DNA of 64,000 nt from an uncultured Dehalococcoidia bacterium (GCA_964555685.1 CAZKTO010000004.1:10858-74857), one strand, 5' to 3'. Shown: positions 7,322 through 62,464, counted from the stretch's first letter. The notes: generated from the sequence alone by a model not told the origin. Translations and numbers: made by a program.

Positions 7322-7473
7322 GAAGCTTCCCGCAGCTTGCTGCGGGGCTTCTGGTGTCCGAACAATCGTGATCACAGCAGGAAGAGTATGGCCCTCTCCC
7401 TCCTGTCCCTCTCCTGCAAGGAGAGGGACGATACCCCCTTCCTCTTTAGGCAAGGGGGCCAGGCGGTTAGGGC
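7322..7473 (+). repeat. Composite repeat: GAAGC..CCGCAGCTTGCTGCGG..CTTC hairpin plus a type-A bipartite element (7391..7473)
   Basis: Near-identical inverted copy at 62312..62464. The type-A core is also close to the 18130..18215 copy. Confidence 0.85.
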
Positions 7474-7586
7474 TCAAGCCCCATCCAAATCCGTGCGAAT
7501 CTGCGTAATCTGCGGATCGAGCGCCATTTCCGCCGTTAGGGTAGACTAGGGCGTTGTGGGCTGCGCGAGCCCTTCACAGGCGCACC

Positions 7587-8624
7587 ATGCCAACCAAAAC
7601 CGCTGATAGAACCGGGACCACCCTCGACCGCCTCGGGCGGCCGCTGCACGACCTGCGCATCTCGGTCACGGACCGGTGCAACTTCCGCTGCACCTACTGC
7701 ATGCCCGCCGAGGTCTACGGCGAGCGCTACGAGTTCCTCCCCAAGCGCGAGATCCTCACCTACGAGGAGATCGCCCGCGTCGCCCGGCTCTTCGTCCGGC
7801 TGGGCACGCGCAAGATCAGGCTCACGGGCGGTGAGCCCCTGGTCCGCGAGGGCCTCGAGCGCCTGGTCGCCCTGCTGGCGCCCATCGAGGGCCTGGAAGA
7901 CCTGGCCGTGACCACCAACGGCTACCTCCTGGCCGCCAAGGCCCGCGCCCTCAAGGACGCCGGGCTCCAGCGCATCACGGTGAGCCTGGACACGCTGGAC
8001 GACGCCATCTTCGGCCAGATGAACGGCCGCGGCTTCGGCGTCCAGCGCGTGCTGGAGGGGATCGAGGCGGCCCGGGAGGCGGGCATGACGCCCGTCAAGG
8101 TGGACGCCGTCGTCCAGCGGGGCGTCAACGATCACACCCTCGCCGGCCTGGCCCGCCACTTCAAGGGGACGGGCGTCATCGTCCGCTTCATCGAGTTCAT
8201 GGACGTGGGCAACCTCAACGGCTGGCGCCTCGACCAGGTCGTCCCGTCAGCGGAGGTCGTGGCCCGCATCAACGCCGTCTTTCCCATCGAGCCCGCCGAG
8301 CCCAACTACTTCGGCGAGGTGGCCGAGCGCTGGCGCTACCGGGACGGCTCGGGCGAGATCGGCGTCATCTCATCGGTGACGCAGCCCTTCTGCCATAGCT
8401 GCACGCGCGCGCGGCTTTCGCCCAAGGGCGAGGTCTACACCTGCCTCTTCGGTACCCAGGGGCGCGACGTGCGCGGGCCGCTGCGCGCTGGGGCCTCGGA
8501 CGACGACCTGCTCTCGCTCCTCTCCGGCGTCTGGGCCGCCCGGACCGACCGCTACTCCGAAATCCGCGCCTCCCTCACGCGGCCCGCCGGCAAGAAGATC
8601 GAGATGTACCAGATCGGCGGGTAG
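7587..8624 (+). CDS. moaA: GTP 3',8-cyclase MoaA (radical SAM, molybdopterin biosynthesis)
   Basis: [18 protein letters not shown] (CxxxCxxC), LTGGEPLVR, and the C-terminal second-cluster cysteines ([20 protein letters not shown]). Confidence 0.9.
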
Positions 8625-8651
8625 CCGGGTGGTGAGGCGACCTGCGGATTC

Positions 8652-8688
8652 ACCCCTTCCCTGTAGGGAAGGGGCCGGGGGTTAGGTC
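8652..8688 (+). repeat. Half type-A element (hairpin 2 plus the GGGGGTTAGG end)
   Basis: ACCCCTTCCCtgtaGGGAAGGGGCCGGGGGTTAGGTC matches the right half of the full copies. Confidence 0.7.
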
Positions 8689-8869
8689 ATCGGCAGCAAA
8701 CTCCTCATCGCCACCACGAACAAAGGCAAGCTCCGCCCCCTTTGTGTCATTGCGAGGAGTCCCGATGCAATCGGGACAGAGCCTGCCCCGAGTCTTTCCG
8801 AGGGGTGGCAATCTCGGCCGTCGTCATGCTGAAACTTCTCATCGCCACCACCAACAAAGGCAAGCTCCG
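8686..8869 (+). repeat. ~50-bp direct duplication of the rdgB 5' end (8686..8735 and 8820..8869) bracketing an 84-bp CATTGCGAG-type hairpin insert (8736..8819)
   Basis: AAACTCCTCATCGCCACCACGAACAAAGGCAAGCTCCG versus AAACTTCTCATCGCCACCACCAACAAAGGCAAGCTCCG (36/38 identical), plus weaker similarity over the 12 nt upstream. Confidence 0.85.
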
Positions 8870-9443
8870 TGAGTACGCCGAGATGGCGCGGGGCCTCCCC
8901 GTCGAGCCCGTCACCCTCGCCGAGGCCGGCATCGAGGCGGACGTGGAGGAGACGGGCGCCACCATCGCCGAGAACGCCGTGCTCAAGGCCCGCGAGTACG
9001 CCCGCCGCTCGGGGATGCTTACCCTGGCCGACGACTCGGGCCTCGAGGTCGACGCCCTGGGCGGCGAGCCCGGCCCCCGCTCGGCCCGCTACGCCGGCGA
9101 GGGCGCCTCCGACGAGGAGCGCGTCCGCTATCTGCTTCAACAGCTCGCGGGCGTGCCCGAGGGGCGGCGAGGGGCCCGCTTCCGCTGCGTCATCGCCGTC
9201 GCCACGCCCGATCTCGAGGTGCGGACCAGCGAGGGCACCTGCGAGGGCGTGATCGCCCGCGAGCCACGGGGCCAGGGCGGCTTCGGCTACGACCCCGTCT
9301 TCTTCCTCCCCGAGCTGGGGCGGCACATGGCCGAGTTCCCCCTGGACGAGAAGAACCGCATCAGCCACCGGGGCCGGGCTATGGCCGGCGCGCGGGCGAT
9401 TGTCGCGGAGTTGGCGAAGCGCCAAGATCGACTTGTACGCTAG
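8826..9443 (+). CDS. rdgB: dITP/XTP pyrophosphatase RdgB (HAM1 family)
   Basis: MLKLLIATTNKGKLREY..., LADDSGLEVDALGGEPG.RSARY, GFGYDPVF and ISHRG motifs. Confidence 0.9.
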   Translation: MLKLLIATTNKGKLREYAEMARGLPVEPVTLAEAGIEADVEETGATIAENAVLKAREYARRSGMLTLADDSGLEVDALGGEPGPRSARYAGEGASDEERVRYLLQQLAGVPEGRRGARFRCVIAVATPDLEVRTSEGTCEGVIAREPRGQGGFGYDPVFFLPELGRHMAEFPLDEKNRISHRGRAMAGARAIVAELAKRQDRLVR

Positions 9444-16097: not shown

Positions 16098-16141
16098 GCC
16101 CCTTCCCCAAAGACGAAGGAAGGGGGATCAGGGGTTAGGTC
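16098..16141 (+). repeat. Half type-A element (degenerate hairpin 2 plus GGGGTTAGGTC)
   Basis: GCCCCTTCCCCaaagacgaaGGAAGGGGGATCAGGGGTTAGGTC. Confidence 0.6.
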
Positions 16142-16144: not shown

Positions 16145-17011
16145 CTACTGCCCCCATCGGCCCGAGGGCGTCATCCGCCAGCCGGCCGCGGCTATCGTCC
16201 CGCCGCCGACGTGGATCGTCTCGCCCGTAATCCACTCGGACAGGTCCGAGGCCAGGAAGATCGCCGCCCCGCCGAAGTCCTCCGGGTAGCCCCGGCGGCT
16301 CAGGGGCACCTGGGGCAGCGGCTCCTTCGAGTCGAAGAGGGGAGCCATCTCCAGGATGCCCGGCGTCACCGTCACGTCCGGCGCGATCTCGTTGACGCGG
16401 ATGCCCAGCGGCGCCACCTCGAGCGCCAGGCTCTTGGTGAAGTTCGCTAGCCCGGCCTTCGCTGCCGCGTAGGGCGTGTACCCCGGCGCCCCGCGGTACG
16501 CCTCGATAGTCGTGAAGTTGATGATGCAGCCCGCCCCCTCTCCGGCACGGAGAGGGGGCGGGCTGCCTGCGGCGGGCCGGGGATGAGGGTAGCCCTTGGT
16601 CCTGGCGGCTTGCATGGCCCGCACGGCGCCCCGGCTCCAGCGCATCGCCTGGACCAGATTCAGGTCGATGGCGTTCATCCACTCCTCGTCCGTCATCGCC
16701 ATGAAGTCCTTGTGGATCGTCCCGCCCAGGTTGTTCACCATGATGTCCAGCCGGCCCAGCTGGCGCACCGTCTCCCCGATGACGCGGTCCACCGTGGCCT
16801 GCTGGCGGCAGTCGGCGGCGAAGGCCAGCGCCTTCCGGCCCAGGGCCCGCACCTCCTGCGCCGCCTCCTGGAGCTCCCGCTCCTTCAGATCAACCAGCAC
16901 GATGTGGGCGCCGAAGGCGGCCAGGCACCGGGCCACCGCCCGCCCGATCCCTCCCGCCGACCCAGTCACGATGGCGACGCGGTCCGTGATCAGGGCCTTT
17001 TGCGGATTCAT
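16145..17011 (-). CDS. SDR oxidoreductase, tandem paralogue 1, carrying a 21-aa repeat-derived insertion
   Basis: VTGSAGGIGRAV, YAAAKAG. It is collinear with 17031..17876 except for the extra YPHPRPAAGSPPPLRAGEGAG. Confidence 0.85.
   Translation of the reverse strand: MNPQKALITDRVAIVTGSAGGIGRAVARCLAAFGAHIVLVDLKERELQEAAQEVRALGRKALAFAADCRQQATVDRVIGETVRQLGRLDIMVNNLGGTIHKDFMAMTDEEWMNAIDLNLVQAMRWSRGAVRAMQAARTKGYPHPRPAAGSPPPLRAGEGAGCIINFTTIEAYRGAPGYTPYAAAKAGLANFTKSLALEVAPLGIRVNEIAPDVTVTPGILEMAPLFDSKEPLPQVPLSRRGYPEDFGGAAIFLASDLSEWITGETIHVGGGTIAAAGWRMTPSGRWGQ
16529..16591. repeat. 63-nt in-frame insertion inside the SDR CDS, containing a perfect 15-nt-arm palindrome (16529..16563: GCCCGCCCCCTCTCC ggcac GGAGAGGGGGCGGGC)
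   Basis: The hairpin core CCCCTCTCCGGCACGGAGAGGGG is identical to hairpin 1 of the 18000 copy. The paralogue lacks exactly these 21 codons. Confidence 0.85.
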
Positions 17012-17030
17012 GACGCTCCCTTCCCTCTGT

Positions 17031-17876
17031 TCACTCCAGTGGCCTGCCCGAGTAGACCTGGGCGCTCACGCCGTCGGTGCTCCAGTGGCCCGAGGGCGTC
17101 AGCTTCCAGCCGGAGGCGGCGTTGGTCCCGCCGCCCACGTGGATCGTCTCGCCCGTCACCCACTCGGACATCTCCGAGGCGAGGTAGAGGGCGGCGCCGG
17201 CGTGGTCCTCGGGCCGGCCCCGGCGGCGCATGGGGATGTGGCTTGGGATGCCCGCCTTCTCCCAGTCCGGCCGCAGCTTGAGGACGCCGGGAGTCACCGT
17301 CGCGTCGGGCGCGATGGCGTTGACCCGGATGCCCCACGGCGAGAGCTCGAGGGCCATCGTCTTGGTGAAGTTGGCCAGGCCGGCCTTGGCGGCGGCGTAG
17401 GGCGCGTAGCCCGGCGCCGCCCGGTACGCCTCGATCGTCGTCACGTTGATGATGGAGCCTCGCGTCTTCCGCTCCATCATCACCTGAGCCGCCGCCTTCG
17501 TCCACCGGAACGCCTGGACCAGGTTCTTGTCCACCGACTCCATCCACTGGTCCTCCGTCATCTCCATGAAGAGCTTCCGGATGGAGCCGCCGGCGTTGTT
17601 GACCATCACGTCGATCCGTCCCAGCTCCCGGACCGTCTCCGCGATGACCCGCTCGACGGTCGTCTGCTGGCGGCAGTCGGCGGCGAAGGCCAGGGCCTTC
17701 CTCCCATGCCCGCGCACCTCGCGCGCCGCCTCCTGGAGCTCCTGGCTCTTGATGTCCACCATGACCACGTGCGCCCCGTACTCGGCGTAGCAGCCCGCGA
17801 TGGCGCGGCCGATCCCTCCGGCGGCCCCGGTGACGATGGCGACGCGGTCGGTCAGCACGGCCTTCTCTTGGTACAT
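17031..17876 (-). CDS. SDR oxidoreductase, tandem paralogue 2
   Basis: VTGAAGGIGRAI, NNAG, YAAAKAG. It is highly similar to 16145..17011. Confidence 0.9.
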   Translation of the reverse strand: MYQEKAVLTDRVAIVTGAAGGIGRAIAGCYAEYGAHVVMVDIKSQELQEAAREVRGHGRKALAFAADCRQQTTVERVIAETVRELGRIDVMVNNAGGSIRKLFMEMTEDQWMESVDKNLVQAFRWTKAAAQVMMERKTRGSIINVTTIEAYRAAPGYAPYAAAKAGLANFTKTMALELSPWGIRVNAIAPDATVTPGVLKLRPDWEKAGIPSHIPMRRRGRPEDHAGAALYLASEMSEWVTGETIHVGGGTNAASGWKLTPSGHWSTDGVSAQVYSGRPLE

Positions 17877-17999: not shown

Positions 18000-18114
18000 C
18001 TGCCCTCTCCCCCGTCCCCTCTCCGGCACGGAGAGGGGCGCACCGTATCCCCCTTCCCTCGCAGGGAAGGGGGCCAGGAGGTTAGGGCCGGTCTTGCCAC
18101 CAGAGTTTAGGCAT
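18000..18114 (+). repeat. Type-A bipartite element (18000..18089) plus a 25-nt tail identical to the 5' end of the thiolase-like gene
   Basis: CTGCCCTCTCCCCCGTCCCCTCTCCggcacGGAGAGGGGCGCACCGTATCCCCCTTCCCtcgcaGGGAAGGGGGCCAGGAGGTTAGGGCC, then GGTCTTGCCACCAGAGTTTAGGCAT. Confidence 0.9.
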
Positions 18115-18129
18115 CCTGTGCAGCCCTCG

Positions 18130-18215
18130 CTGCCCTCTCTCTCCTGTCCCTCTCCTGAAGGGAGAGGGACGATACCCCCTTCCTCTTTAGGGAAGGGGGC
18201 CAGGGGGTTAGGTCC
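18130..18215 (+). repeat. Type-A bipartite element (variant shared with 7391 and 62312)
   Basis: CTGCCCTCTCTCTCCTGTCCCTCTCCtgaagGGAGAGGGACGATACCCCCTTCCTCTTTAGGGAAGGGGGCCAGGGGGTTAGGTCC. Confidence 0.9.
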
Positions 18216-18297
18216 GCCCTTGACCCTTTCCTGGGCCCACTCTACAATCCGCCTCAGAGAGGCGGCCCGGTCCCCCGCGCCGCCCAAGGAGGCGACC

Positions 18298-19560
18298 ATG
18301 GGGCGAACCATCTTCAAGAAGGCCAACCTGATCGACGGCGAGCACCCTGCTCGTAAGAATGTCACCGTCGTCGTCGAGGGCGAGCGCATCGCCAGCGTCA
18401 CGGCAGGCCAGGAGCCGGCGCCGAGGCCGGGGGACCAGGTCTACGACCTGGGGGGCCGCACGCTGATGCCGGGCATGGTGCTCTGTCACTACCATCCCTC
18501 CTACCACAAGATCGGCACCTTCGGCGGCCCCATCGATCTGCAGTACCAGCCGCCCACGCTGGCCATGATCGCCGCTCGCAACGCCCAGACGACCATCGAG
18601 TGCGGGTTCACGTCAGCCGTCGGCGCCGGCACCATCCACAACATCGATGTGGCCCTCCGCGAGGCCATCGACATGGGGATGATCACGGGGCCCCGCATCA
18701 TGGCCTCGGGCCGTGATCTGGTGACCACCGGCAGCCAGGTCGGCGGATGGCCCTGGTGGTGGCAGGTGGGCCTCGAGGGCGTCGCCAGAAGGTGCGACGG
18801 GCCCGAGGAGTTCCGCAAGGCCGTGCGGGAAGAGGTGGACAAGGGCGTCGAGATGATCAAGCTCTACCCCACCGTGGGCCATCCCGGGCCGTGGCCTGAG
18901 GACCGGATGAACATCACCGTCGAGGAGATGCGCGCCGCCGCCGAGGCCGTCCACGAGCGCGGCAAGAAGATCCGCGCCCACGTGGCCTCCAAGAAGGCGA
19001 TCCTGGCATGCTGCGCCACGGGGATCGATGTCATCGACCACGCCGACGCCATCGACGGCGAGTGCGTCGATGCGATCCTGCGCACGGGCGCGTACCTCGT
19101 GCCGAGCTGCCTGTACCCGGAGTCGGTGCTGGAGGAGGCGCGGCGCCGCGGCGAGGCGGACCGCCCCCGCTATCGCCAGGCTCAAGAGACGCTGGACCGC
19201 TTCTACGGCGTGCTGCCGGAGGTCAATGCCGCCGGCGTCAAGCTCGTCCTCGGCGACGACTACGGCACGGCGACGCTCCCCCACGGCGACTACGCCAAGG
19301 AGATGACGCTCTATGTCCAGCGCGTCGGCATCGCGCCCCTCGATGTCCTCCGCTGGGCGACCAAGAACGGCGCGGAGCTTATGGGCATGGGTGACCAGCT
19401 CGGCACTATCGAGCCGGGCAAACTGGCCGACCTCCTGGTCGTCGACGGCGACCCGACGGCCGATATCGCCGTCCTCCAGGACACCGCGCGCCTCCACGCC
19501 ATTATGAAGGGTGGCGCCTTCGTCAAGAACGAGCTCGCCAACGCTGGTGGCGGGCGCTAG
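18298..19560 (+). CDS. Metal-dependent amidohydrolase-family protein
   Basis: MGRTIFKKANLIDG...DLGGRTLMPGMVLCHYH... followed by typical TIM-barrel hydrolase features. AAGGAGG lies upstream of ATG 18298. The 166 aa upstream in the track ORF are translated repeats. Confidence 0.8.
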   Translation: MGRTIFKKANLIDGEHPARKNVTVVVEGERIASVTAGQEPAPRPGDQVYDLGGRTLMPGMVLCHYHPSYHKIGTFGGPIDLQYQPPTLAMIAARNAQTTIECGFTSAVGAGTIHNIDVALREAIDMGMITGPRIMASGRDLVTTGSQVGGWPWWWQVGLEGVARRCDGPEEFRKAVREEVDKGVEMIKLYPTVGHPGPWPEDRMNITVEEMRAAAEAVHERGKKIRAHVASKKAILACCATGIDVIDHADAIDGECVDAILRTGAYLVPSCLYPESVLEEARRRGEADRPRYRQAQETLDRFYGVLPEVNAAGVKLVLGDDYGTATLPHGDYAKEMTLYVQRVGIAPLDVLRWATKNGAELMGMGDQLGTIEPGKLADLLVVDGDPTADIAVLQDTARLHAIMKGGAFVKNELANAGGGR

Positions 19561-19700
19561 AACTGGTTGCAAACGTGTCATTCCGAGCCGTCAGGCGAGG
19601 GGTCTGGGGAGGGGAGGTCCTCCCCTCCCCAGACCCCTCAGCCGCAGACGGCCTCGGGGTGGCAGGGACTCGGCCGTTTGGCGAGTTTTGCAATGGGTTG
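19558..19700 (+). mobile_element. CTAG..GGTTGCAAA hairpin MITE, copy 2 (more diverged; contains a 43-nt perfect palindrome at 19597..19639)
   Basis: TAGAACTGGTTGCAAACGTGTCATTCCGAGCCG...GAGTTTTGCAATGGGTT. Its first TAG is the amidohydrolase stop codon. Confidence 0.75.
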
Positions 19701-19714: not shown

Positions 19715-19991
19715 GGTAGATTTGAAAGACCGACTGTGCAGTTCTCACTGCCCTCTCCCCCGTCCCCTCTCCGACACGGAGAGGGGCGCTCCGTATTCCC
19801 CCTTCCCTCGCAGGGAAGGGGGCTAGGGGGTTAGGGCCGAGGCACGGTGGATTTGAAAGACCGACTGTGCAGTTCTCACTGCCCTCTCCCCCGTCCCCTC
19901 TCCGACACGGAGAGGGGCGCACCGTATTCCCCCTCCCTCGCAGGGAAGGAGCCAGGCGCCGTCCTGAGCCTGCCGAAGGAGGGTTAGGGCC
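19715..19991 (+). repeat. Tandem duplication of a ~131-bp unit, each unit being a 33-nt flank plus a type-A element (cores 19748..19838 and 19879..19991)
   Basis: GGTAGATTTGAAAGACCGACTGTGCAGTTCTCACTGCCCTCTCC... repeats at 19846 with 1 mismatch in the flank. Unit 2 carries an extra GCCAGGCGCCGTCCTGAGCCTGCCGAAGGAG segment that is also present in the 34003 copy. Confidence 0.9.
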
Positions 19992-21811: not shown

Positions 21812-21853
21812 CCCCCCTTCCCTAAGTAGGGAAGGGGGCTAGGGGGTTAGGGC
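21812..21853 (+). repeat. Half type-A element, followed by a separate 10-bp-stem hairpin (21869..21897)
   Basis: CCCCCCTTCCCtaagtaGGGAAGGGGGCTAGGGGGTTAGGGC. Confidence 0.65.
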
Positions 21854-22000
21854 TAGCAACCCCCGGCCCTCATCCCCCGTTGGGAAGGGGGGATGAGCCC
21901 CACCTCTCCCTGGCTCCTTGCCCCCGCGCGCATCGGGAGCTAGGATTGAAACGGCCAGTCGCGGGCGCCGCCGACGCCCTCCCGCGCGCCAAGGAGCCCC

Positions 22001-27856: not shown

Positions 27857-27865
27857 GACGGTGTT

Positions 27866-28330
27866 TTACCTCTCCCCCTTCCCCTCTCCCGCAGGGAGAG
27901 GGGCGATCTGTGTTCCCCCTTCCCGCGCCGGGAAGGGGGCCAGGGGGTTAGGTTCCACGCTGGCTAGGTCAGCGATCCGAGCTAGAACGGCAGCGAGGTT
28001 TGCCCTGATGTCCCTGTTCGGCACGCGGAGAATCCTCAGATCTCGGGCCGCGAGGAGCTGATCACGCGCCGCATCATATTCCTTTTGACGTTGGTGGCTC
28101 GGACTATCCACTTCCACAACAAGGGATGCCGCGTGACAGTAGAAGTCTACGATAAAGCCATCGATCACTTGCTGGCGGCGGAAGTGGAGGCCGTGCAGTC
28201 GGTTAGCCCGTATCGCCTGCCAGAGAGTCTGTTCCTCTGGTGTCATATAGCGGCGCAACGACTTGGCAGCCTCAAGCTTCTCGGCTGCTACCTTTTGTCC
28301 GACCACTACTCCACGTCTTTCCATACGCAA
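27866..28330 (-). CDS. DUF559 (Vsr/restriction-endonuclease-like fold) protein, AT-richer, with its C-terminus read out of a type-A repeat
   Basis: LRRYMTPEEQTLWQAIRANRLHGLHFRRQQVIDGFIVDFYCHAASLVVEVD...RDQLLAARDLRILRV is typical DUF559. The last ~30 aa (NPLAPFPAREGG...) are repeat translation. Confidence 0.8.
   Translation of the reverse strand: MRMERRGVVVGQKVAAEKLEAAKSLRRYMTPEEQTLWQAIRANRLHGLHFRRQQVIDGFIVDFYCHAASLVVEVDSPSHQRQKEYDAARDQLLAARDLRILRVPNRDIRANLAAVLARIADLASVEPNPLAPFPAREGGTQIAPLPAGEGKGER
27869..27956 (+). repeat. Type-A bipartite element
   Basis: CCTCTCCCCCTTCCCCTCTCCcgcagGGAGAGGGGCGATCTGTGTTCCCCCTTCCCgcgccGGGAAGGGGGCCAGGGGGTTAGGTTCC. Confidence 0.9.
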
Positions 28331-28340
28331 CCTTGTTCGA

Positions 28341-28428
28341 CCTCTCCCCCGGCCCCTCTCCTGAATGGAGAGGGGCGCACCGTATCCCCCCCTTCCCCAC
28401 TGGGGAAGGGGGACGGGGGGTTAGGTCC
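28341..28428 (+). repeat. Type-A bipartite element
   Basis: CCTCTCCCCCGGCCCCTCTCCtgaatGGAGAGGGGCGCACCGTATCCCCCCCTTCCCCactGGGGAAGGGGGACGGGGGGTTAGGTCC. Its TTA (28421..28423) is the thiolase-like gene's stop codon on the other strand. Confidence 0.9.
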
Positions 28429-29611
28429 CCCTCCTCAAGATAAACGCTCCCGTGGGGTCGCTGTTGGCCGCCATGACGACGACGGCGCGGGCGTTGGGCG
28501 CCTGCGTCGTCGAGGCGCCGCGGATCTGGCGCACCGCCTCTAGCACGTTGTTGAAGCCGTGGATGAAGGCCTCCGAGTGCTGCCCGCCGTGGGTGTTCAG
28601 GGGCAAGCGGCCGCCGGGCCCCTCGAGGGCGCCGCCCTCGGAGAAGGGGCCGGCCTCGCCCCGGCCGCAGAAGCCCAGGTCCTCGAGGGCCAGGAGCGCC
28701 ATGGGCGTGAAGTGGTCGTAGACGTACGCCGCGGCGATATCCTTGTGCTTGAAGTCCGACTGCTCGAAGAGCCTTCGGCCCAGGCCCGCGGCCATGCGGT
28801 CGCGCGGGAAACGGAACCAGTCGCTGAGCTGGTAGTGGGCCGGCTGCACGTGCTGGGCGAAGGCGTGGACCACGGCCGGCGGCTGCGGCATGCTCCGGGC
28901 CTCCTCGGCGCGCGAAAGCACGACGGCGCAGGCCCCGTCCGTCTCGATGCAGCAGTCGAGGAGGCGCAGCGGGTCGGCGATCATGCGCGATTGGTGGTGG
29001 TCCTCCGGGGTGATGGGCGTGCGCATGACGGCGTTGGGGTTGCGGGAGGCGTGCTTGCGTAGCGCCACGGCCACGTTGGCGAAGTGGTCCTCCGTCCAGC
29101 CGTAGTCGTGCATGAGGCGCCGGGCGATGACCGCCATCTCCTGCGCCGGGCTCTGGATGCCGAAGGGCACGTGGTACTGGCCGTGGCTCGCGATGCGCGG
29201 CTCGACCTTCTCCCACGGGCGCCCGCCCTCGCTCGTACCGGGGCCGAAGACGGACCTGCGCCCCCTCGCCCGCGAACGGTAGGCGACGAGGTGCCTGCAC
29301 AGCCCGGCGGCGACGCCCAGCGCCCCGTGTCCAACGACAGCGGCGTAGGCCCCGCCCCCGTGGGGCTGCGTGACATAATAGCCGGCGTTCCCGATGCCGA
29401 GGAGCTGGTAGAGGTGGTTGTTCAGCCCCTCCACCTGGAGGTTGTAGCAGGAGACGCCATCAATGTCTCTGGGTGTGAGGCCCGCGTCGGCGATGGCCTT
29501 GAGGATGGCCTCGGCGGCCATGCTCCACTCGGACCGGTTCAGCCCCTTCCCGTACTCGGTCTGGCCGATGCCGGTGATGGCGACCCCGTCTTGCCACCAG
29601 AGTTTAGGCAT
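28421..29611 (-). CDS. Thiolase-like protein (SCP-x/Ltp-type, 396 aa), paralogue 1
   Basis: MPKLWWQDGVAITGIGQTEYGK..., ...DCCIETDGACAVVL..., ...LNTHGGQHSEAFIHG... . ATG 29611 is preferred because upstream is repeat DNA. Confidence 0.85.
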   Translation of the reverse strand: MPKLWWQDGVAITGIGQTEYGKGLNRSEWSMAAEAILKAIADAGLTPRDIDGVSCYNLQVEGLNNHLYQLLGIGNAGYYVTQPHGGGAYAAVVGHGALGVAAGLCRHLVAYRSRARGRRSVFGPGTSEGGRPWEKVEPRIASHGQYHVPFGIQSPAQEMAVIARRLMHDYGWTEDHFANVAVALRKHASRNPNAVMRTPITPEDHHQSRMIADPLRLLDCCIETDGACAVVLSRAEEARSMPQPPAVVHAFAQHVQPAHYQLSDWFRFPRDRMAAGLGRRLFEQSDFKHKDIAAAYVYDHFTPMALLALEDLGFCGRGEAGPFSEGGALEGPGGRLPLNTHGGQHSEAFIHGFNNVLEAVRQIRGASTTQAPNARAVVVMAANSDPTGAFILRRGT

Positions 29612-29618
29612 GCTTATC

Positions 29619-29732
29619 GCCCTCTCCCCCAACCCCTCTCCTGAAGGGAGAGGGGCGATTCCCCCTTCCCTACCAGGGAAGGGGGCCAGGGGGTTAGGGT
29701 CTCCCCCGGTCCTGCCACCAGAGTTTGGTCAT
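29619..29732 (+). repeat. Type-A element (29619..29701) plus a tail that duplicates the thiolase 5' end (29708..29732)
   Basis: GCCCTCTCCCCCAACCCCTCTCCtgaagGGAGAGGGGCGATTCCCCCTTCCCtaccaGGGAAGGGGGCCAGGGGGTTAGGGTC ... GGTCCTGCCACCAGAGTTTGGTCAT. Confidence 0.9.
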
Positions 29733-34002: not shown

Positions 34003-34114
34003 GCCCTCTCCCCCAGCCCCTCTCCTGAGCGGAGAGGGGCGCACCGCGTTCCCCCTTCCCTTGCAGGGAAGGGGGCCAGGCGCCGTCCTGAGCTTGTCGA
34101 AGGAGGGTTAGGGC
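34003..34114 (+). repeat. Type-A element, long variant with the extra GCCAGGCGCCGTCCTGAGC..GAAGGAG segment
   Basis: GCCCTCTCCCCCAGCCCCTCTCCtgagcGGAGAGGGGCGCACCGCGTTCCCCCTTCCCttgcaGGGAAGGGGGCCAGGCGCCGTCCTGAGCTTGTCGAAGGAGGGTTAGGGC. Confidence 0.9.
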
Positions 34115-38886: not shown

Positions 38887-38921
38887 CCCATCCCTTCACG
38901 GAAGGGGTAGGGGGTTAGGTT
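38887..38921 (+). repeat. Half type-A element; its TTA (38915..38917) is the stop codon of the ACAD gene on the other strand
   Basis: CCCATCCCTTCacGGAAGGGGTAGGGGGTTAGGTT. Confidence 0.6.
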
Positions 38922-40160: not shown

Positions 40161-40667
40161 ATGACCTACGAGAGAACCCCATCCTCTCAGGCCGCTCAGG
40201 CCAGCGAGGCGTACCCCCAGCCCCTGCCTCTCCCCGACCTCGATAGCCAGCCCTACTGGGACGGCTGCCGCCGCCACGAGCTCCTCCTCCAGCGCAACAA
40301 GCTCACCGGCCAGTTCCGCTTCCCGCCGGGGCCCATGGTAGCCATCCCCGGCCAGGCCGAGTGGGAGTGGGTGAAGGCCAGCGGCCGCGGCGCCGTGTAC
40401 AGCTTCTGCGTCGTCCACTACCCGGCGCACCCGCACTTCCGGAGCAAGGTCCCCTACGTCGTCGCCATCATCGACTTGGAGGAGGGAGCGCGCATCGTCG
40501 GCAACATGCCGGGCGTCAAGGAGACGGACGTCCGCATCGGCATGCCCGTCGAGGTCTACTTCGAGGACGTCGCGCCGGACGCGGCGCTGCCGCAGTTCAG
40601 GAAGGCGGAGAGAGACCCTTCGCTCGCCCCTTCGGGGACTCAGGGCTACGGCTCTGGGCAAGCCTAA
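40161..40667 (+). CDS. DUF35 OB-fold protein (zinc-ribbon cysteines not retained)
   Basis: PYWDGCRRHELLLQRNKLTGQFRFPP...GRGAVYSFCVVHY...VVAIIDLEEG...MPVEVYFE is collinear with 27416..27856. The last ~20 aa and the TAA stop come from repeat DNA. Confidence 0.75.
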   Translation: MTYERTPSSQAAQASEAYPQPLPLPDLDSQPYWDGCRRHELLLQRNKLTGQFRFPPGPMVAIPGQAEWEWVKASGRGAVYSFCVVHYPAHPHFRSKVPYVVAIIDLEEGARIVGNMPGVKETDVRIGMPVEVYFEDVAPDAALPQFRKAERDPSLAPSGTQGYGSGQA

Positions 40668-40850
40668 CTCCCCTGGCTCCCTTCCCATTCACGAAAGGGG
40701 CATTGGTCGCTCCTCTCAAAGGCGGGGTTCTGACAATGATGGGGGCTCCAAGGGGGTCACCCCCTTGGCGGGGGTCTGGGGGACACCCCCCAGAGTCGAA
40801 TCGATTCCCCCTCTCCGTCCTCGATGGAGAGGGGCCAGGGGGTGAGGGTG
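40663..40850. repeat. Composite repeat patch: a reverse-oriented degenerate half type-A, a CCAAGGGGGTcaCCCCCTTGG hairpin, and a hairpin-1-like unit CCCCTCTCC..GGAGAGGGGCCAGGGGGTGAGGG
   Basis: Read directly. The boundaries are approximate. Confidence 0.55.
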
Positions 40851-44977: not shown

Positions 44978-44996
44978 GCGCTCCCTCCTTCGCCCC

Positions 44997-45066
44997 GCCC
45001 TCTCCCTCGTTCCCCTCTCCGGGCCGGAGAGGGGGGAACACCCCTTCTCGCGCCGGGAAGACGGGC
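44997..45066 (+). repeat. Degenerate type-A-like element
   Basis: GCCCTCTCCCTCGTTCCCCTCTCCgggcCGGAGAGGGGGGAAC..CCCCTTCTCgcgccGGGAAGACGGG. Confidence 0.55.
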
Positions 45067-45087
45067 GGGCACAGAGGCCCGCCCCTA

Positions 45088-48663: not shown

Positions 48664-48750
48664 GCCCTCACCCCTGGCCCCTCTCCTACCAGGAGAGGGG
48701 AGCGCGTGTTCCCCCTTCCCATTTAGGGAAGGGGGCTGGGGGTTAGGGCC
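48664..48750 (+). repeat. Type-A bipartite element bracketed by a ~25-nt duplication of the MaoC-2 3' end
   Basis: GCCCTCACCCCTGGCCCCTCTCCtaccaGGAGAGGGGAGCGCGTGTTCCCCCTTCCCatttaGGGAAGGGGGCTGGGGGTTAGGGCC. The flanks are 48636..48660 and 48755..48779. Confidence 0.9.
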
Positions 48751-50001
48751 CTATTCCACCACCTTCACGCTGTACGGCGTCAGGAACTCCGAGGGCTTGT
48801 GCTCGCCCGTCTCGCCGGGCAGGACGACGGGGCCCGCCTCCCGCGAGGGCAGGATCACCGTCGCCGTGCCGGGCGCCGTGATCTCCCCGCGCTGGTTCTC
48901 GACCCACACCTCCAGGTCCGCCATCCGGTGCTTGCCCTCGATGCGCTTCCGGACGATCTTCGCGTGCACCCACGAGGTGTCGCCCGTGTAGTTGAACCGG
49001 CGGATCTGGTCCGACTGCCGGTAGAGCCAGGCGTCGTCCCCCATCCAGCTGGTGATGAGGTTGACCATCCAGTGGGTGCGCATATTCCCGTAGTCGTACG
49101 AGCGGGGGTTGCCCACCTTTCGCGCCCGGGCGTCCTCCCAGTGCACCCGCTGAGCGCAGTCCCATGCGCCGTACTCGTTCTTCGTGTAGAAGGCCGGGAC
49201 GCGCCTCCGGTTCTTGTAGCCCATGCGCAGGGCGGCCACGCCGAACATCGCTCCGAAACCGCGCCCCGAGTGCCAGAGGATGACGTCCGTTACCGTGAGG
49301 GGCCCCCGCACGATGGCGGGCAGCTCCTCGCCCTCCCGCACGTCCTCCCAGGAGCGCGGCTCCCTGCCGCGCAGCGTCTCCCGCTCGTACGCCTCGTCGA
49401 TCTTTGCCAGGTCCTCGTCGGTGTACCTGGGCGCCTCGATGGCGGCGTACTTCCCCTTCTTCTCGGAGGCCTCGCGCTCGACGTGGAAGAAGTAGTTACG
49501 CTGGATGGCGACGAGCTCGTCCCGCTGGTTGATGAACTCGTGCTTGTGATGGACAACAGCCGCCGTGCCGCCGCCGAACTCGCTGCGCTTCTCCTCGACC
49601 TTCGAAAGATAGTAGCGCTGGGAGAGCCGGTCGCCCGGGCAGACGGGCCGGAGCCACGTCCACTCGGTGCCGGAGAGGTAGTTGGGCACGCCGCGCAGGG
49701 CCCCGGCGCCCTTGGCCCGGACGTCCGGCGGGATGGGCGGCGCGACGGAGATGCCCATGGTGCTCGCGTAGCCCGGCGCGCCGATGACGCCGCCCCAGCG
49801 GGTCTTGGCCGCGTACTGGGGGTCGCACCAGAGCGGATTGTCGTCGCCGTAGGAGTGGGCCTGGTGGCGGATCGTGTCCTCGGAGGCGACGGTGTTCCAG
49901 GGCCGGTCCTGGGGGATGAGGATGCCGATGCGCGCCCGCATCCGCTCGATCCCCTCGGGCGTGATCGTTCCCTGCATCTCCTCGGGCTGCTTCTCGGCCA
50001 T
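48751..50001 (-). CDS. MaoC-like double-hotdog acyl dehydratase/enoyl-CoA hydratase, paralogue 2
   Basis: Collinear with 46761..48017 (RHQAHSYGDDNPLWCDPQYAAKTRWGGVIGAP). ATG 50001 with GAGGAG 5 nt upstream is preferred over GTG 50013. Confidence 0.8.
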   Translation of the reverse strand: MAEKQPEEMQGTITPEGIERMRARIGILIPQDRPWNTVASEDTIRHQAHSYGDDNPLWCDPQYAAKTRWGGVIGAPGYASTMGISVAPPIPPDVRAKGAGALRGVPNYLSGTEWTWLRPVCPGDRLSQRYYLSKVEEKRSEFGGGTAAVVHHKHEFINQRDELVAIQRNYFFHVEREASEKKGKYAAIEAPRYTDEDLAKIDEAYERETLRGREPRSWEDVREGEELPAIVRGPLTVTDVILWHSGRGFGAMFGVAALRMGYKNRRRVPAFYTKNEYGAWDCAQRVHWEDARARKVGNPRSYDYGNMRTHWMVNLITSWMGDDAWLYRQSDQIRRFNYTGDTSWVHAKIVRKRIEGKHRMADLEVWVENQRGEITAPGTATVILPSREAGPVVLPGETGEHKPSEFLTPYSVKVVE

Positions 50002-50106
50002 GGCGCTCCTCACCCCGGTGCGATATCGGCGCCATTATAGGCGGCCCGGCGAGGTATCGCCATCGCGGGCGGGGTTCGTGGTGGGGTTAGCGTGGCGTGT
50101 TGTGTT

Positions 50107-53486: not shown

Positions 53487-53526
53487 CCCCCTCTCCGGGT
53501 CGGAGAGGGGGCAAGGGGGAGAGGGC
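53487..53526. repeat. Hairpin repeat CCCCCTCTCCGggtCGGAGAGGGGG plus CAAGGGGGAGAGGGC (half of the 3692-type palindrome)
   Basis: Read directly. It lies in the gap before recA. Confidence 0.7.
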
Positions 53527-54694: not shown

Positions 54695-54772
54695 GGGTGG
54701 AAGGCCGCCGGGTGCCAGACCCCATGTGAAGACCGCAGCTCGGCCCGTTTGGACATAACGGATAGTCATACA

Positions 54773-55774
54773 ATGGGACAAGTCCGACACGAGGTCTCTA
54801 TCGAAGGTTCGCACTTCGAAAGGGCGAGCGCTCTCCTGCCGCCGGGTCTGTTTGAGTCCGTCAAGGCAGACGCCCAAAAGGTGATCCCTGCGTTGGCGAA
54901 GGACAAGAAGGTCACGGCCGCCATCGAACAGGTGGTTTGGCAGCTAGGCACTCGCCACGAGCTCTTTCGCGGAGACAGCCGGTCAATGGATGCGGTTCCC
55001 GATGAGAGCATTCACCTCGTGGTCACATCTCCCCCGTATTGGACCCTCAAGAACTACCCATCCCAAGCAGGGCAGTTGGGAGGCATCGATGGCTACGATG
55101 CCTTTCTTGTCGAGCTTGACAAGGCCTGGCGCCATGCCTATCGAGTGCTCGTACCTGGGGGCCGGCTGGTGGTTGTGGTGGGAGACGTTTGCTTGCCGCG
55201 CCGGTCCAACGGCAGGCACGTGGTCTACCCGCTGCACGCGAGCATCCAGGAGCACTGCCGGGCCATCGGCTTCGATAACCTGGGACCCATCATCTGGTAC
55301 AAGATCGCCAACGCGAAGTTTGAAGTTGAAAATGGCTCGCGGTTTCTTGGCAAGCCGTACGAGCCCAACGCGATCATCAAGAACGACATCGAGTACGTCC
55401 TGTTCCAGAGGAAACCAGGCAACTATCGTCAACCCAGCCTGCTTCAGCGCGTCCTATCGGTAATACCAGAGGACTGTCACCGGGAGTGGTTCCAACAAGT
55501 GTGGAACCTCGGTGGCGCATCCACCAGGCATCACCCCGCCCCCTTTCCATTGGCCCTTGCCGAACGCCTCATCCGCATGTTCTCCTTTGCGGGGGATACC
55601 GTTCTTGACCCGTTCATGGGAACGGGTACGACCAATCTCGCGGCTGCCCGCTGGGGGCGCAACAGCACCGGCTTCGAGATCAATGAAACGTATCTTGAGA
55701 TGGCACGTCGGCGCCTAGCCCACGCCAAGAGCCACCAATCGCGAATGACGGACCTTGTGTCCGAGGGTCAATGA
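54773..55774 (+). CDS. Beta-class amino DNA methyltransferase (N4-C/N6-A family; the SPPY motif suggests N4-cytosine)
   Basis: Motif IV (LVVTSPPYW) lies N-terminal to motif I (VLDPFMGTGTTNLAAARWGRNSTGFEIN). The stop overlaps the next ORF's ATG (ATGA). Confidence 0.85.
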   Translation: MGQVRHEVSIEGSHFERASALLPPGLFESVKADAQKVIPALAKDKKVTAAIEQVVWQLGTRHELFRGDSRSMDAVPDESIHLVVTSPPYWTLKNYPSQAGQLGGIDGYDAFLVELDKAWRHAYRVLVPGGRLVVVVGDVCLPRRSNGRHVVYPLHASIQEHCRAIGFDNLGPIIWYKIANAKFEVENGSRFLGKPYEPNAIIKNDIEYVLFQRKPGNYRQPSLLQRVLSVIPEDCHREWFQQVWNLGGASTRHHPAPFPLALAERLIRMFSFAGDTVLDPFMGTGTTNLAAARWGRNSTGFEINETYLEMARRRLAHAKSHQSRMTDLVSEGQ

Positions 55775-56500
55775 TGGCGGCCGGCCGGTCATCGCCGGTG
55801 TTCTCGGAAGCAGTCAGGGCGTTCTGGAAGACGAGGACTCTCCAGGCAGCCGGCCAGCGACAGCGCGGCAAGTCCGATCAAGGGGCTCGCGGTGCGGTGA
55901 CGGGCGGCCGACAGATGGACGGCTTTGCGAGAACCTTGTCCGAGGCCCTGCTCTCCGCTGGCGTGGGAAGCGGCGACATACACCGTCGCCGAAGGGTGGA
56001 GATCCCAGGGTATTACCGGCCCACAAAGCAGTGGGATTTGCTGGTCGTGGTCAAGGGAGCGCTCTTGGCGGCCATCGAGCTCAAGTCTCAGGTTGGCCCC
56101 TCCTTTGGCAATAACTTCAACAACCGCACCGAAGAGGCAATGGGGAGCGCCCTGGACACCTGGACCGCCTATCGTGAGGGTGCCTTCAGCGCCGCGCCTG
56201 CCCCATGGCTTGGCTACCTTCTTCATCTTGGAGAACTGTCCTCAATCGCGGACCTCAGTGAGAGTGCAAGAGCCACACTTTCGCGTGTTCCCGGAGTTTC
56301 GGGAAGCGTCTTACGCCAAGCGATACGAAGTCTTCTGCCGCAAACTGGTCCGAGAACGTCAATACAGCGCGGCGTGCTTCCTCATGGCGGACCGGCGTAA
56401 GGCAACCCACGAGCCCAACTACAGTGAACCAGCCAGAGACTTGTCGGCGGCGGTCTTCCTGAAGGAACTGCTCGCATCTGTCCGTGCTCGTGTTGGGTGA
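55771..56500 (+). pseudogene. PaeR7I/XhoI-like type II restriction endonuclease gene disrupted by a +1 frameshift near 56217..56224
   Basis: The frame of 55771 gives ...YYRPTKQWDLLVVVKGALLAAIELKSQVGPSFGNNFNNRTEEAMGSALDTWTAYREGAF...PWLGYL. The conserved continuation FILENCPQS...PHFRVFPEFREASYAKRYEVFCRKLVRERQYSAACFL is in the 55925 ORF frame. The family assignment is from memory. Confidence 0.7.
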
Positions 56501-57974: not shown

Positions 57975-58059
57975 TCTCTCTCCCCTGGCGGGAGAGAGCC
58001 AGAGAGAGGGGGATCACCCTCTCCCTAGCCCTCTCCCGTCGAGGGAGAGGGAGTTTAGT
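57975..58059 (+). repeat. Type-B double-hairpin repeat (CTCTCCCCtggcGGGAGAG ... CCCTCTCCCgtcgaGGGAGAGGGAGTTTAG)
   Basis: Second copy in the same orientation at 60381..60469. Confidence 0.75.
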
Positions 58060-60303: not shown

Positions 60304-60380
60304 GGATGCACTGCATTCCTCAATGACCAGCAGGGGCCTTGCCCAAAAAGTGGTGGCGCTAAGCCCGGACCCTCACACCT

Positions 60381-60469
60381 CCTCTCCGCTGGCGGGAGAG
60401 GACAAGAGGAGAGGGGGAATTGGCCACCCTCTCCCCAACCCTCTCCCGTCGAGGGAGAGGGAGTTTTGA
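60381..60469 (+). repeat. Type-B double-hairpin repeat, copy 2
   Basis: CCTCTCCGctggcGGGAGAGG...CACCCTCTCCCCAACCCTCTCCCgtcgaGGGAGAGGGAGTTTTGAG. Confidence 0.75.
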
Positions 60470-60542
60470 GGCAAAGCCGACCAGCAGGTAAGAGGGCGGG
60501 CCTCACAGCGCCGGCAGGCGCCTGAACGTTGTGCCGATCACC

Positions 60543-61061
60543 CTACAGATTCTCGCGCAGGTACCGCCCGCGATAGCCCTCGCTGGCCTCTCGCTCCAGC
60601 CGGAAGAAGACGAGCTGGAGCACCCGCGCGTTCCGCTCCAGCACGAACCCCTGTGGGTTGTAGACGACCATCAGGCTCTCGGACCGGCCCGAGTAGCCCG
60701 CGTCCCACACCGCCGTGTGGAGGGCCACGCCGCACCGCAGCAGGCTCGAGCGGGTACGCCCCATCGCCGCGAGATCGAGCGGCAGGTGCACCACCTCGTT
60801 CATGGTGATGAGGTAGGCGCCGGGCGAGAGGTGCGCCCGGCCCGCCTCGTCGAACGGGACCGGCTCCCGCTCCGAGAGGCGGCGGGCCTCGTTGGAGAAG
60901 CCGGCGGCCCCGGGCGAGGTCAGGCGGGCCGCCTCTCGCGCCGTGAGGTCGATCCCGTTGGGCTGGAGCTGGGTCTCGGCGTCCAGCAGCCCCTCGACGA
61001 GCGGCGGCGTACCCCGCATGCGTTCAAGGATGGACTGTCGGTCGAGGAGCGCGCCGGCCAT
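60543..61061 (-). CDS. dCTP deaminase/dUTPase-superfamily protein
   Basis: LQPNGIDLT..., ...TAVWDAGYSGRSESLMVVYNP.GFVLERNARVLQLVF. ATG 61061 chosen. Confidence 0.7.
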   Translation of the reverse strand: MAGALLDRQSILERMRGTPPLVEGLLDAETQLQPNGIDLTAREAARLTSPGAAGFSNEARRLSEREPVPFDEAGRAHLSPGAYLITMNEVVHLPLDLAAMGRTRSSLLRCGVALHTAVWDAGYSGRSESLMVVYNPQGFVLERNARVLQLVFFRLEREASEGYRGRYLRENL

Positions 61062-61311
61062 GGGCCCTCCACGGCGTCGCACGGTGCGCCTACTATAGCA
61101 GCCCAAGGTGTCGCCTGCGCGCAATAGGGGCGCACCCCCTACAGGATGACAGGGGGCGGCGGACACCCGGCTGCGCACCAGCCTCCGGTGGGCCCGCCTG
61201 CGGCGGGCCCACCTACACGTGATACGTTGCCCGTTGCGACGCCCTGCCCTTCTTGTCGGCGCTGCCGGCTGGTACAATCACGCCGTTCCAGCCTGTCGCG
61301 GAGGTGATCCT

Positions 61312-62130
61312 GTGCTGACCAAAGACCAGCTCACTGTGCCCACGGTCAAGGAGATGTTCGATCTCGCCCGGCGCATCCACAAGGGCGAGGGCATGTCCTA
61401 CTGGATCGAGCCCGAGACCGTCCCGTCCAAGGAGTACCGCGACCGCATCGCCGCTATCCTCCTGCGGCACGGCCTCCTGGAGAGCTCCGGCGGGCCCGCC
61501 TTCTTCAATCTCATCCGCTACGCTCCCCATCCCCGCGTCGGCGAGGCCCTCTGCGACATCGCTCTCGACGAGGTCCGGCACGGCCGCATGCTCCTGGAGT
61601 GCCTGGACCCCTTCGGCGTCGAGTACCGGGCCGCCTTCCGCGAGATGGTCGCCGCCGACTACCGTGCGCGCATGCACCGGGTCGGCATGTCCACCGCCCG
61701 CGGCGAGCCGTCCAGCTGGGCCGACGTCCTCGCCTTCACCATGCTCATCGATCCCGCCGGCATCCTCATCGTCGGCATGCGGCTCCTCAGCAACTACGGT
61801 CCCCTGGCCCGCGCCAGCGCCCGCACGCTGCTCGACGAGGAGGGGCACGCAGCCTTCTGGGAGCGCTGGGGCCAGGACCATCTCGCCAGCGCCGCCGGGC
61901 GTGCCGAGGTCCAGGCCTCCGTCGACCGTTTCATGGCCACCTCCCTTGGCACCCTCGGCCGGCCCAAGGCCGTCAACGCCAACTTCGCTCGTGAGCAGGA
62001 GCTGGGCATCTGGAAGATCGACCCCGGCGAGCTCCAGCCCGTGCTCAAAGCGATGCTCCAGCGCTCCATCGAGCCGCTGGGCCTGCGCGTGCCGGAGGTC
62101 GCCCCGGACTACGGGGCGGCGTTCTGGTAG
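61312..62130 (+). CDS. Ferritin-like diiron protein resembling PaaA/PaaC-type (phenylacetyl-CoA epoxidase subunit) proteins
   Basis: DEVRHGRML and DEEGHAAFW helices. GTG 61312 is preceded by GGAGGTG. Confidence 0.6.
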   Translation: MLTKDQLTVPTVKEMFDLARRIHKGEGMSYWIEPETVPSKEYRDRIAAILLRHGLLESSGGPAFFNLIRYAPHPRVGEALCDIALDEVRHGRMLLECLDPFGVEYRAAFREMVAADYRARMHRVGMSTARGEPSSWADVLAFTMLIDPAGILIVGMRLLSNYGPLARASARTLLDEEGHAAFWERWGQDHLASAAGRAEVQASVDRFMATSLGTLGRPKAVNANFAREQELGIWKIDPGELQPVLKAMLQRSIEPLGLRVPEVAPDYGAAFW

Positions 62131-62311
62131 CTTGCGGCTGTCTCAACTGTCATAAAAGAGGCCGCTGGATACCCGCCCCGACGCATCGGGGCGGGCGGAA
62201 AGCGGCTCCCCGCCGAAGGCGGGGGCTCCGGAAGGGTTTGCCTTGGTGGCACGGTACACAACACGGCGGACGTTACTCCCCTGGCGATCTCTTGGATTTT
62301 GGGCTGGCAAG

Positions 62312-62464
62312 GCCCTAACCCCCTGGCCCCCTTCCCTAAAGAGGAAGGGGGTATCGTCCCTCTCCTCGCAGGAGAGGGACAGGAGGGAGAGGGCCGCATG
62401 GCTCGTGCCGCAATCGCGATTATTGAGGCACCCAGAAGCCCCGCAGCTTGCTGCGGGGTGCTTC
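62312..62464 (-). repeat. Composite repeat (type-A element 62312..62394 in reverse orientation plus the GAAGCCCCGCAGCTTGCTGCGGGG..CTTC hairpin); inverted copy of 7322..7473
   Basis: The reverse complement of 7322..7473 aligns along the whole length with only scattered mismatches in the spacer. Confidence 0.85.

Follow-up and report, generated by a model that had tools for sequence, protein, structure and literature searches.

A two-module hairpin repeat of an uncultured Dehalococcoidia bacterium as a probable paired intrastrand triplex-type element

The 64,000-nucleotide stretch of an uncultured Dehalococcoidia bacterium analyzed here (CAZKTO010000004.1:10858-74857, referred to at its full length as the window) carries a family of bipartite hairpin repeats, called type A below. 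The repeat is probably a paired intrastrand purine-motif triplex-type element, non-coding and intergenic, which multiplies by copying. The family itself is real and far above chance, with 19 matches of the right-hairpin pattern in the window against 0.18 expected. The original prediction had described 12 full and five half copies of a bipartite hairpin, and all of them were recovered: an nhmmer profile built from nine copies returns 12/12 full copies (E 1e-14 to 1e-23) and 5/5 half copies (8652, 16098, 21812, 38887 and 40663, which are single right-hand modules), and an independent repeat finder yields the same set of full copies. Each full copy consists of two hairpins, each with its own tail, and all copies are intergenic according to gene calls based on GC3 plus Pfam, which give about 50 window genes.

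Read on its G-rich strand, each half comprises a homopyrimidine arm, a loop of 3-9 nt, a homopurine arm, a linker of 2-4 nt and a G-rich tail, and this tail is the mirror image of the module's own purine arm, where A may face either A or T. The tail of the left half (the CT module), CCTCTCCCC(C), mirrors the adjacent arm CCCCTCTCC; the right half (the TT module) consists of GGGAAGGGGG, then 2-3 nt, then GGGGG-TT(A)-GGG. In both halves the tail bases of the G-rich strand are capable of forming G.G-C, A.A-T and T.A-T triplets in the antiparallel register. Because the triplex-capable strand is the - strand for the CT half and the + strand for the TT half, the two tails point outward. A pyrimidine arm, a complementary purine arm and a triplet-compatible antiparallel third block, connected by short loops, are all present. 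An architecture scan finds about 37 such modules in the window and 0 in shuffled sequence; of homopyrimidine/homopurine hairpins there are 76 (a per-strand count), where dinucleotide shuffles give 2.4, and mirror tails number 23 against 0, exceeding direct-repeat tails by 23 to 9. The triplet census amounts to 1172 G.G, 158 A.A, 276 T.A and 113 other. The occurrence of either A (158) or T (276) opposite A fits the purine motif and excludes a pyrimidine-motif, RNA-capable triplex on the C-rich strand, where the tails carry A at positions that would require T.

The same architecture is found in other genomes. When a species-representative genome collection was searched with an 18-base right-half pattern, more than 117 stretches matched, and the hosts among the matches listed include several Chloroflexota classes, Nostocales and other Cyanobacteria (36-46% GC), Planctomycetota (Gemmataceae), Armatimonadota, Desulfonema, Bipolaricaulota and Gemmatimonadales. 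The left half, which lies outside the search pattern, is present in the same arrangement in 80/136 hits among the matches listed; close pairs in this cross-phylum set, among those same matches, are tails-out in 44 cases, tails-in in 3 and tandem in 10. The CT+TT two-module unit is nearly unchanged in genomes ranging from 36% to 75% GC and belonging to at least six phyla.

The main new argument concerns the covariation of tail and stem, which argues that the triplex-capable geometry is constrained. Across variants and phyla, different stem variants bear correspondingly different tails, the stem/tail pairs being GGAGAGGGG/GGGGAGAGG, GGAGAGAGG/GGAGAGAGG, GGAGAGAGA/AGAGAGAGG, GGGGAGGGGG/GGGGGTGGGG, AGGAGAGGGA/AGGGAGAGG and GGGAAGGGGG/GGGGGTT(A)GG. 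Mismatches of a stem to its own tail average 0.64, compared with 1.78 +/- 0.06 for permuted tails, and 0/500 permutations match the observed value. Three tail positions change jointly with the base pair that they would contact in a 32-sequence cross-phylum alignment; the in-register tail/purine-arm double-change cells number 13, a value reached by 0/500 shuffles and to be compared with 0-2 in slid controls. Within the stems themselves, compensatory changes from C-G to T-A are observed. In the source genome as well, the stem (TCCCTCTCC) and tail (CCCTCC) of subfamily 1, whose copies lie at 7391, 18132 and 62311, have changed together.

The two outer 12-mers of the full copy, previously described as complementary at 10/12 positions and as able to close a three-way junction, are indeed complementary to that extent. 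A minimum-energy prediction for the single strand also gives the junction (-29 to -31 kcal/mol, z -4.2 to -4.9; -30.4 kcal/mol and z -4.6 for the 29619 copy as DNA), in a computation limited to Watson-Crick pairs. The 12-mers are nevertheless better explained as tails mirroring their own stems than as a junction-closing helix, since the mismatches of this helix fall precisely at the positions that distinguish the two stems, since it needs T.G oppositions across phyla, and since single modules retain the tail without a partner tail.

In the proposed mechanism, the hairpin would form when the G-rich strand is single-stranded, and the tail would fold back antiparallel into the major groove, where it would make G.G-C, A.A-T and T.A-T triplets. 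Probably it is the single-stranded form that matters, because the tail rule fits a purine-motif triplex, which forms in DNA and not in RNA according to Holder et al. 2015 (NAR 43:10126, PMC4666352). We infer that the triplex, or a protein reading it, may act in vivo on DNA that becomes transiently single-stranded during replication, transcription or repair, and that this structure could be what selection or the copying machinery sees. Multiplication by copying would then account for dispersed subfamilies and for gain and loss between relatives, with the machinery presumably encoded elsewhere, outside the element.

Several observations weigh against a triplex-type element multiplying by copying. 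The TT tail requires a bulged A, and the copies at 19881 and 34003 have a 26-nt linker. For TMECO, the related repeat of Escherichia coli, PMC4666352 reports no triplex in the double-stranded form, nor any by in vivo dimethyl sulfate (DMS) footprinting. A handful of independent lineage changes underlies the covariation, whose statistics ignore phylogeny. Conservation of the right half is partly forced by the 18-base right-tail pattern; that of the left half is not. A G-rich arm plus tail could adopt a G-quadruplex instead.

This last point introduces a very unlikely alternative, namely that the repeat is a G-quadruplex/i-motif element or the site of a host DNA-binding protein and not a triplex. 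The TT tails of the window read GGG AA GGGGG CCA GGGGG TTA GGG and offer four G-tracts, circular dichroism (CD) spectra of such G-rich sequences resemble those of parallel G-quadruplexes (PMC4666352), and the strong cross-phylum conservation is what a conserved protein reader would lead one to expect. A quadruplex, however, requires neither a complementary C-rich arm nor mirror symmetry, the CT tails contain GG tracts only, and the position-specific A/T-for-A covariation is the rule of the triplex. No candidate protein recurs beside the copies: the neighbor genes that recur across the 117 loci belong only to generic families (histidine kinases, ABC transporters, methyltransferases, WD40, NACHT and Uma2), with Uma2 found near copies in 4/117 loci and judged not enriched.

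Beyond the positions listed earlier, the window contains a degenerate 13th copy, a double-tailed palindrome, two single CT modules and two tails-in pairs. The full copies are distributed as 11 on the + strand and 1 on the - strand. The inventory, in window positions, is as follows.

7391..7475, + strand: full copy of subfamily 1, with the CT module first, the TT module second and both tails outward (nhmmer E=9e-21); 94% identical to 18132 and close to 62311rc, between FBPase_3 and MoaA
18002..18090, + strand: full copy, subfamily 2, first of the tandem pair upstream of the amidohydrolase gene
18132..18216, + strand: full copy, subfamily 1, second of the tandem pair upstream of the amidohydrolase gene
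19750..19838, + strand: full copy, subfamily 2, first of the tandem pair downstream of the amidohydrolase gene
19881..19989, + strand: full copy with a 26-nt insert between TT purine arm and tail
27867..27955, + strand: full copy; 10 nt separate the end of its CT tail (GGGGGAGAGGT on the - strand) from the ChsH2-OB ATG that follows
28339..28430, + strand: full copy; a thiolase-like gene (- strand) has its TAA stop in the TTA of the TT tail
29619..29702, + strand: full copy, subfamily 3; CT tail 7 nt upstream of the thiolase-like ATG (MPKLWWQ), Shine-Dalgarno-like
34003..34113, + strand: full copy with a 26-nt insert as in 19881; ends 7 nt from the CoA-transferase stop codon
44426..44512, + strand: full copy, subfamily 3, TT tail slightly decayed; 94% identical to 29617 over 69 nt
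44996..45077, + strand: degenerate 13th copy, CT module intact, TT module decayed
48664..48750, + strand: full copy, CT tail with T opposite A (GGGGTGAGGG); abuts the MaoC-like stop codon
62311..62394, - strand: full copy, subfamily 1, the sole full copy on this strand
3690..3746, no strand assigned: single CT hairpin flanked by two mirror tails, which makes it a perfect 25-bp palindrome (-37 kcal/mol, z -8.8)
8652..8688, + strand: single TT module (half copy)
16098..16141, + strand: single TT module (half copy)
21812..21854, + strand: single TT module (half copy)
38887..38920, + strand: single TT module, degenerate, with an acyl-CoA dehydrogenase gene on either side
40662..40720, - strand: degenerate TT module (nhmmer E=3e-5)
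40808..40850, + strand: single CT module with tail GGGGTGAGG
53487..53526, + strand: single CT module, 10-bp stem, perfect mirror tail
57976..58051, no strand assigned: tails-in CT module pair, with the topology of E. coli BoxC pairs; the right unit fits the strict TMECO pattern
60380..60461, no strand assigned: second tails-in pair; the right unit fits the strict TMECO pattern

The copies at 19881 and 34003, which seem 3'-truncated, are thus full copies whose second purine arm and tail are separated by 26 nt. The same insert (CCAGGCGCCGTCCTGAGCYTGYCGAAGGAG) occurs in these two distant copies (19881-19989 and 34003-34113); either it is a small element of its own or the two copies are of recent common ancestry. 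The amidohydrolase gene (~18400-19560) has on each side two elements in tandem that are oriented alike (18002-18216 and 19750-19989). The two arrays have a related inter-element spacer of 41-45 nt (...CTGTGCAG..CTC.CT), and a 45-nt upstream flank is common to the 19750 and 19881 copies; the gene looks as if it were framed by a two-element array repeated in direct orientation. At 40740-40800, a stretch bounded by the modules 40662 and 40808, lie two short palindromes of another type (CCAAGGGGGTCACCCCCTTGG and TCTGGGGGACACCCCCCAGA).

With regard to multiplication, three dispersed subfamilies with common loops and spacers can be distinguished, the first formed by 7391, 18132 and 62311rc, the second by 18002, 19750, 19881 and others, and the third by 29619 and 44426; the sharing of loops and spacers by dispersed copies points to copying rather than convergence. 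A comparison of insertion sites is provided by the syntenic relative L235, which has the gene order mutase, FBPase, MoaA, Ham1 and a mutase 80% identical to that of the window. This relative lacks the 7391 copy, its MoaA-Ham1 spacer has a different hairpin at the orthologous place of the 8652 module, and its mutase-FBPase spacer carries CT modules, whereas the window spacer has none. The copies are therefore not fixed at orthologous sites, and the condition of conserved sites, which the original prediction had named as refuting it, does not hold. Among metagenomic loci with homology to the thiolase operon (80 loci, 423 kb), one carries an element. The dispersed subfamilies, together with the gain and loss relative to L235, indicate at the level of sequence comparison a copy-and-paste turnover. 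As a separate observation, the 5' coding end of Ham1 is partly duplicated in both the window (~8700-8800) and L235 (10330-10440), and after the duplicate comes a small hairpin repeat (GTCATTGCGAGGAGTCCCGATGCAATCGGGAC), apparently a different short element inserted at the gene start.

The original prediction had tentatively ascribed the family to mobilization as single-stranded DNA, that is, to a non-autonomous element moved by a Y1/HUH enzyme with its hairpins as ends, either a miniature inverted-repeat transposable element (MITE) derived from IS200/IS605 or a relative of the repetitive extragenic palindrome (REP)/RAYT system. Two different subterminal hairpins, the absence of a target-site duplication (0/36 copies have one of 3-4 nt or more), the local strand bias of the TT modules (13 loci to 2), the dispersed subfamilies and the gain and loss relative to L235 would all suit such an element. 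Its defining features, however, were not found in the sequence covered. No conserved tetra- or pentanucleotide abuts the left end, where the flanks are heterogeneous, and the foot of the hairpins, which is the C-rich tail or, on the opposite strand, a variable spacer, shows no GT[AG]G or CGTC guide of the kind used as a criterion for REP/RAYT and IS200-type elements (PMC6006769, PMC3733652). In agreement with what had been stated before, no Y1/HUH transposase, nor any other transposase, is found among the approximately 50 window genes. Queries with E. coli RayT and an IS200 TnpA sequence give no phmmer hit among 11,860 open reading frames (ORFs) in 1.6 Mb around ~170 copies, no RAYT gene flanked by repeats occurs in the window or in those 1.6 Mb of loci, and the cross-phylum loci contain neither long elements bounded by modules nor left and right ends enclosing a gene. 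Single modules proliferate too, REPs are species-specific whereas the window repeat is common to several phyla, and the mirror-tail rule would be left without explanation. Movement by a Y1/HUH enzyme is consequently considered unlikely, and the window repeat is not of IS200/IS605 or REP/RAYT character by any feature tested.

The ends of the full copy, (G/A)CC(C/T)... and ...AGG(G/T)C, form an imperfect terminal inverted repeat (10/12), as would be expected of a classical MITE of a DDE transposon. In some Planctomycetota copies (L005, L006 and L059) this repeat is 5-7 nt longer than ACC...GGT, with cgcaa before it and ttgcg after it, which suggests lineage-specific outer ends. A DDE origin appears hardly credible, given the lack of a target-site duplication in the same 36 copies and of an associated transposase, and the frequency of half elements. 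A bolder form of the triplex-type interpretation, in our estimate rather unlikely, would regard the tails-out CT+TT dimer as a distinct selfish cross-phylum element, recognized via its triplex and copied or moved by a structure-specific single-stranded-DNA enzyme. If this were true, it would constitute a new mobilization class, and the tail-stem covariation would be the first evolutionary evidence of DNA triplexes read in vivo.

The strand polarity of the family, described earlier as holding regardless of gene direction, stands in part. By independent locus, 13 TT modules lie on the + strand and 2 on the - strand (binomial p about 0.007). Relative to the flanking genes of the window, 10 are antisense and 4 sense, and both - strand exceptions are antisense like the majority. 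Rough gene calls in other genomes and in viral contigs give an antisense lean of 12:6 and 6:1 (~28:11 when pooled with the window), and convergent contexts exceed divergent ones by 11 to 2. Adjacent full copies in other genomes have the same orientation in 6 cases and the opposite one in 4. The local polarity is real, confounded with gene direction, and absent elsewhere. The GC skew is negative across the window and too confounded by gene strand for any replichore to be assigned.

Placement next to genes is also orientation-specific in viral contigs. The motif occurs in 33 IMG/VR contigs (L199-L231), chiefly as single TT modules. On the hairpin side, the module lies at most 40 nt upstream of an opposite-strand gene start in 16/34 cases, 14 of them with a Shine-Dalgarno sequence; on the tail side, it lies within the same distance of a gene start in 5/34 cases, with a Shine-Dalgarno sequence in 0. 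Such viral TT modules are placed, in one orientation, just before ribosome binding sites. In the window, copies lie 0-40 nt after stop codons in 4/6 cases within - strand operons. CT tails (GGGGGAGAGG) are found 7-11 nt upstream of the thiolase-like and ChsH2-OB ATGs (29600-29630 and 27856-27880, respectively) and are Shine-Dalgarno-like, and the TAA stop of the thiolase-like gene coincides with the TTA of a TT tail (28421-28423). The elements supply functional-looking signals to neighboring genes, namely a stop codon and likely ribosome binding sites.

These placements, the pooled orientation bias with its excess of convergent contexts, the 14/34 viral modules preceding a Shine-Dalgarno sequence and start codon, and the strong predicted fold would be compatible with a role in RNA, in which the three-way junction or double hairpin of operon transcripts protects upstream mRNA 3' ends or modulates the downstream ribosome binding site. 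Such a role is nonetheless improbable. The window and 8 copy-bearing loci contain no Rfam family at gathering score, and the permissive threshold returns only weak miRNA-like noise; stems and loops behave as those of a repeat and not of a conserved RNA, T.G oppositions are needed for the outer helix across phyla, and both orientations occur. The mirror tail would have no part in an RNA junction, where, following PMC4666352, the purine motif does not form. No intrinsic terminator (G+C-rich hairpin followed by a T-run) is present at any copy within 17-35 kb, and the E. coli PIT elements have neither promoter nor terminator activity in the same source. The weak miRNA-like signal originates from a perfect 19-bp G/C-rich palindrome (GGGGTCTGGGGAGGGGAGG T CCTCCCCTCCCCAGACCCC) at 19590-19645, which lies 30 nt after the amidohydrolase stop and lacks a T-run.

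As for its setting, the window has a GC content of ~68% and is placed in the Chloroflexota. Its genes are ordinary chromosomal ones (gidB, sbcC, methylmalonyl-CoA mutase, FBPase, moaA and recA), with numerous CoA-transferase, acyl-CoA dehydrogenase and thiolase paralogues, and the mutase is 100% identical to a protein encoded on a 78-kb NCBI contig and 70-80% identical to proteins of Dehalococcoidia/Chloroflexota metagenome-assembled genomes (MAGs). Tandem paralogue pairs with 70-84% DNA identity are found for SDR/SDR (16145-17876 and 20104-21739), thiolase-like (28421-31641) and MaoC-like genes (46761-50013), and triplex-type elements (29619, 48664 and 16098) occupy spacers between or beside such pairs. 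Directly after recA, at 54749-56400, an N6/N4 DNA methylase and an XhoI-family restriction endonuclease coincide with the lowest GC content of the window (~63.5%) and probably constitute a restriction-modification system that was acquired.

Although BoxC/PIT repeats were recognized decades ago, neither a function nor a mechanism of copying is generally accepted for them, and the present results also bear on whether DNA triplexes matter in bacterial cells. The covariation between third strand and stem, the near-constant two-module unit and the turnover together argue that something reads the structure, and the repeats provide natural compensatory variants and filled or empty sites as test material. 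For annotation, they inflate ORF calls and supply real stop codons and likely ribosome binding sites to neighboring genes.

Among the known repeat classes, the integron attC site was considered, its GTTRRRY core being fitted by GTTAGGT, and rejected, as the left end has no inverse core, the neighboring genes of both strands have housekeeping functions and an integrase is lacking. The family resembles REP/BIME/REPIN sequences in being made of short intergenic hairpins, single or in inverted doublets, placed just after genes, divided into subfamilies and devoid of target duplication. In contrast to them, it has no GT[AG]G or CGTC guide, its tail mirrors the stem, its halves do not pair into one long hairpin, and its sequence is conserved across phyla, whereas REPs are species-specific (PMC6006769, PMC3733652). 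GTAG/CGTC REP families and RAYT subclasses do not fit as its identity, and no RAYT was found in the window or the 1.6 Mb of loci. The earlier remark that the family is not a textbook REP/BIME is borne out. MITEs derived from IS200/IS605 (PATEs) are likewise similar in their two different subterminal hairpins, lack of target-site duplication and possible strand bias, and differ in that type A has no conserved flanking target tetranucleotide and no cognate tnpA/tnpB, and that its half elements are common.

A search of the published literature by the sequence strings of the repeat retrieved nothing relevant. The closest match is found in the BoxC/PIT/TMECO repeats of E. coli and other Proteobacteria (Hoyne et al. 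2000, cited in PMC4666352), which Holder et al. 2015 (PMC4666352) describe as having a class II purine-motif intrastrand triplex architecture. In that paper, the strict TMECO consensus is CCCTCNCCC N3-6 GGGNGAGGG N3 GGGNGAGGG, with 23 copies in E. coli K-12, all intergenic, and five inverted pairs, each of two different types; the TMECO single strand forms a stable triplex in vitro, and PIT elements are linked to local instability. The strict pattern matches the window twice (58017-58051 and 60427-60461) and shuffled sequence never. Type A shares with this class the succession of C-rich arm, loop, G-rich arm, ~3-nt linker and second G-rich block mirroring the arm, the occurrence as singles and as inverted pairs of two motif types (here CT+TT), the multi-copy intergenic location, the conserved stems with variable loops and the absence of a transposase. 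It differs in its stems, CCCCTCTCC and CCCCCTTCCC, which lie outside the strict consensus with its stem CCCTCNCCC, and in its TT half, where T.A-T triplets occur together with a bulged A. In all 12 type A copies the topology is tails-out, whereas the E. coli hrpB-mrcB BoxC pair, whose sequence was inspected, is tails-in. The hosts of type A are Chloroflexota, Cyanobacteria, Planctomycetota and others, unlike the Proteobacteria that harbor BoxC/PIT. The ITxF survey in PMC4666352 reports abundant G/C-rich triplex motifs in Microcystis, Anabaena and Nostoc; the Nostocales copies retrieved here have the identical two-module element, and the cyanobacterial motifs of that survey, as given in its available text, are probably of the same family. 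This text gives cyanobacterial counts, and the bipartite CT+TT unit, its cross-phylum conservation and the tail-stem covariation are not described in it. We accordingly assign the window family, on its predicted architecture, to the known BoxC/PIT/TMECO intrastrand-triplex class, within which the tails-out CT+TT arrangement and its spread across phyla appear to be new.

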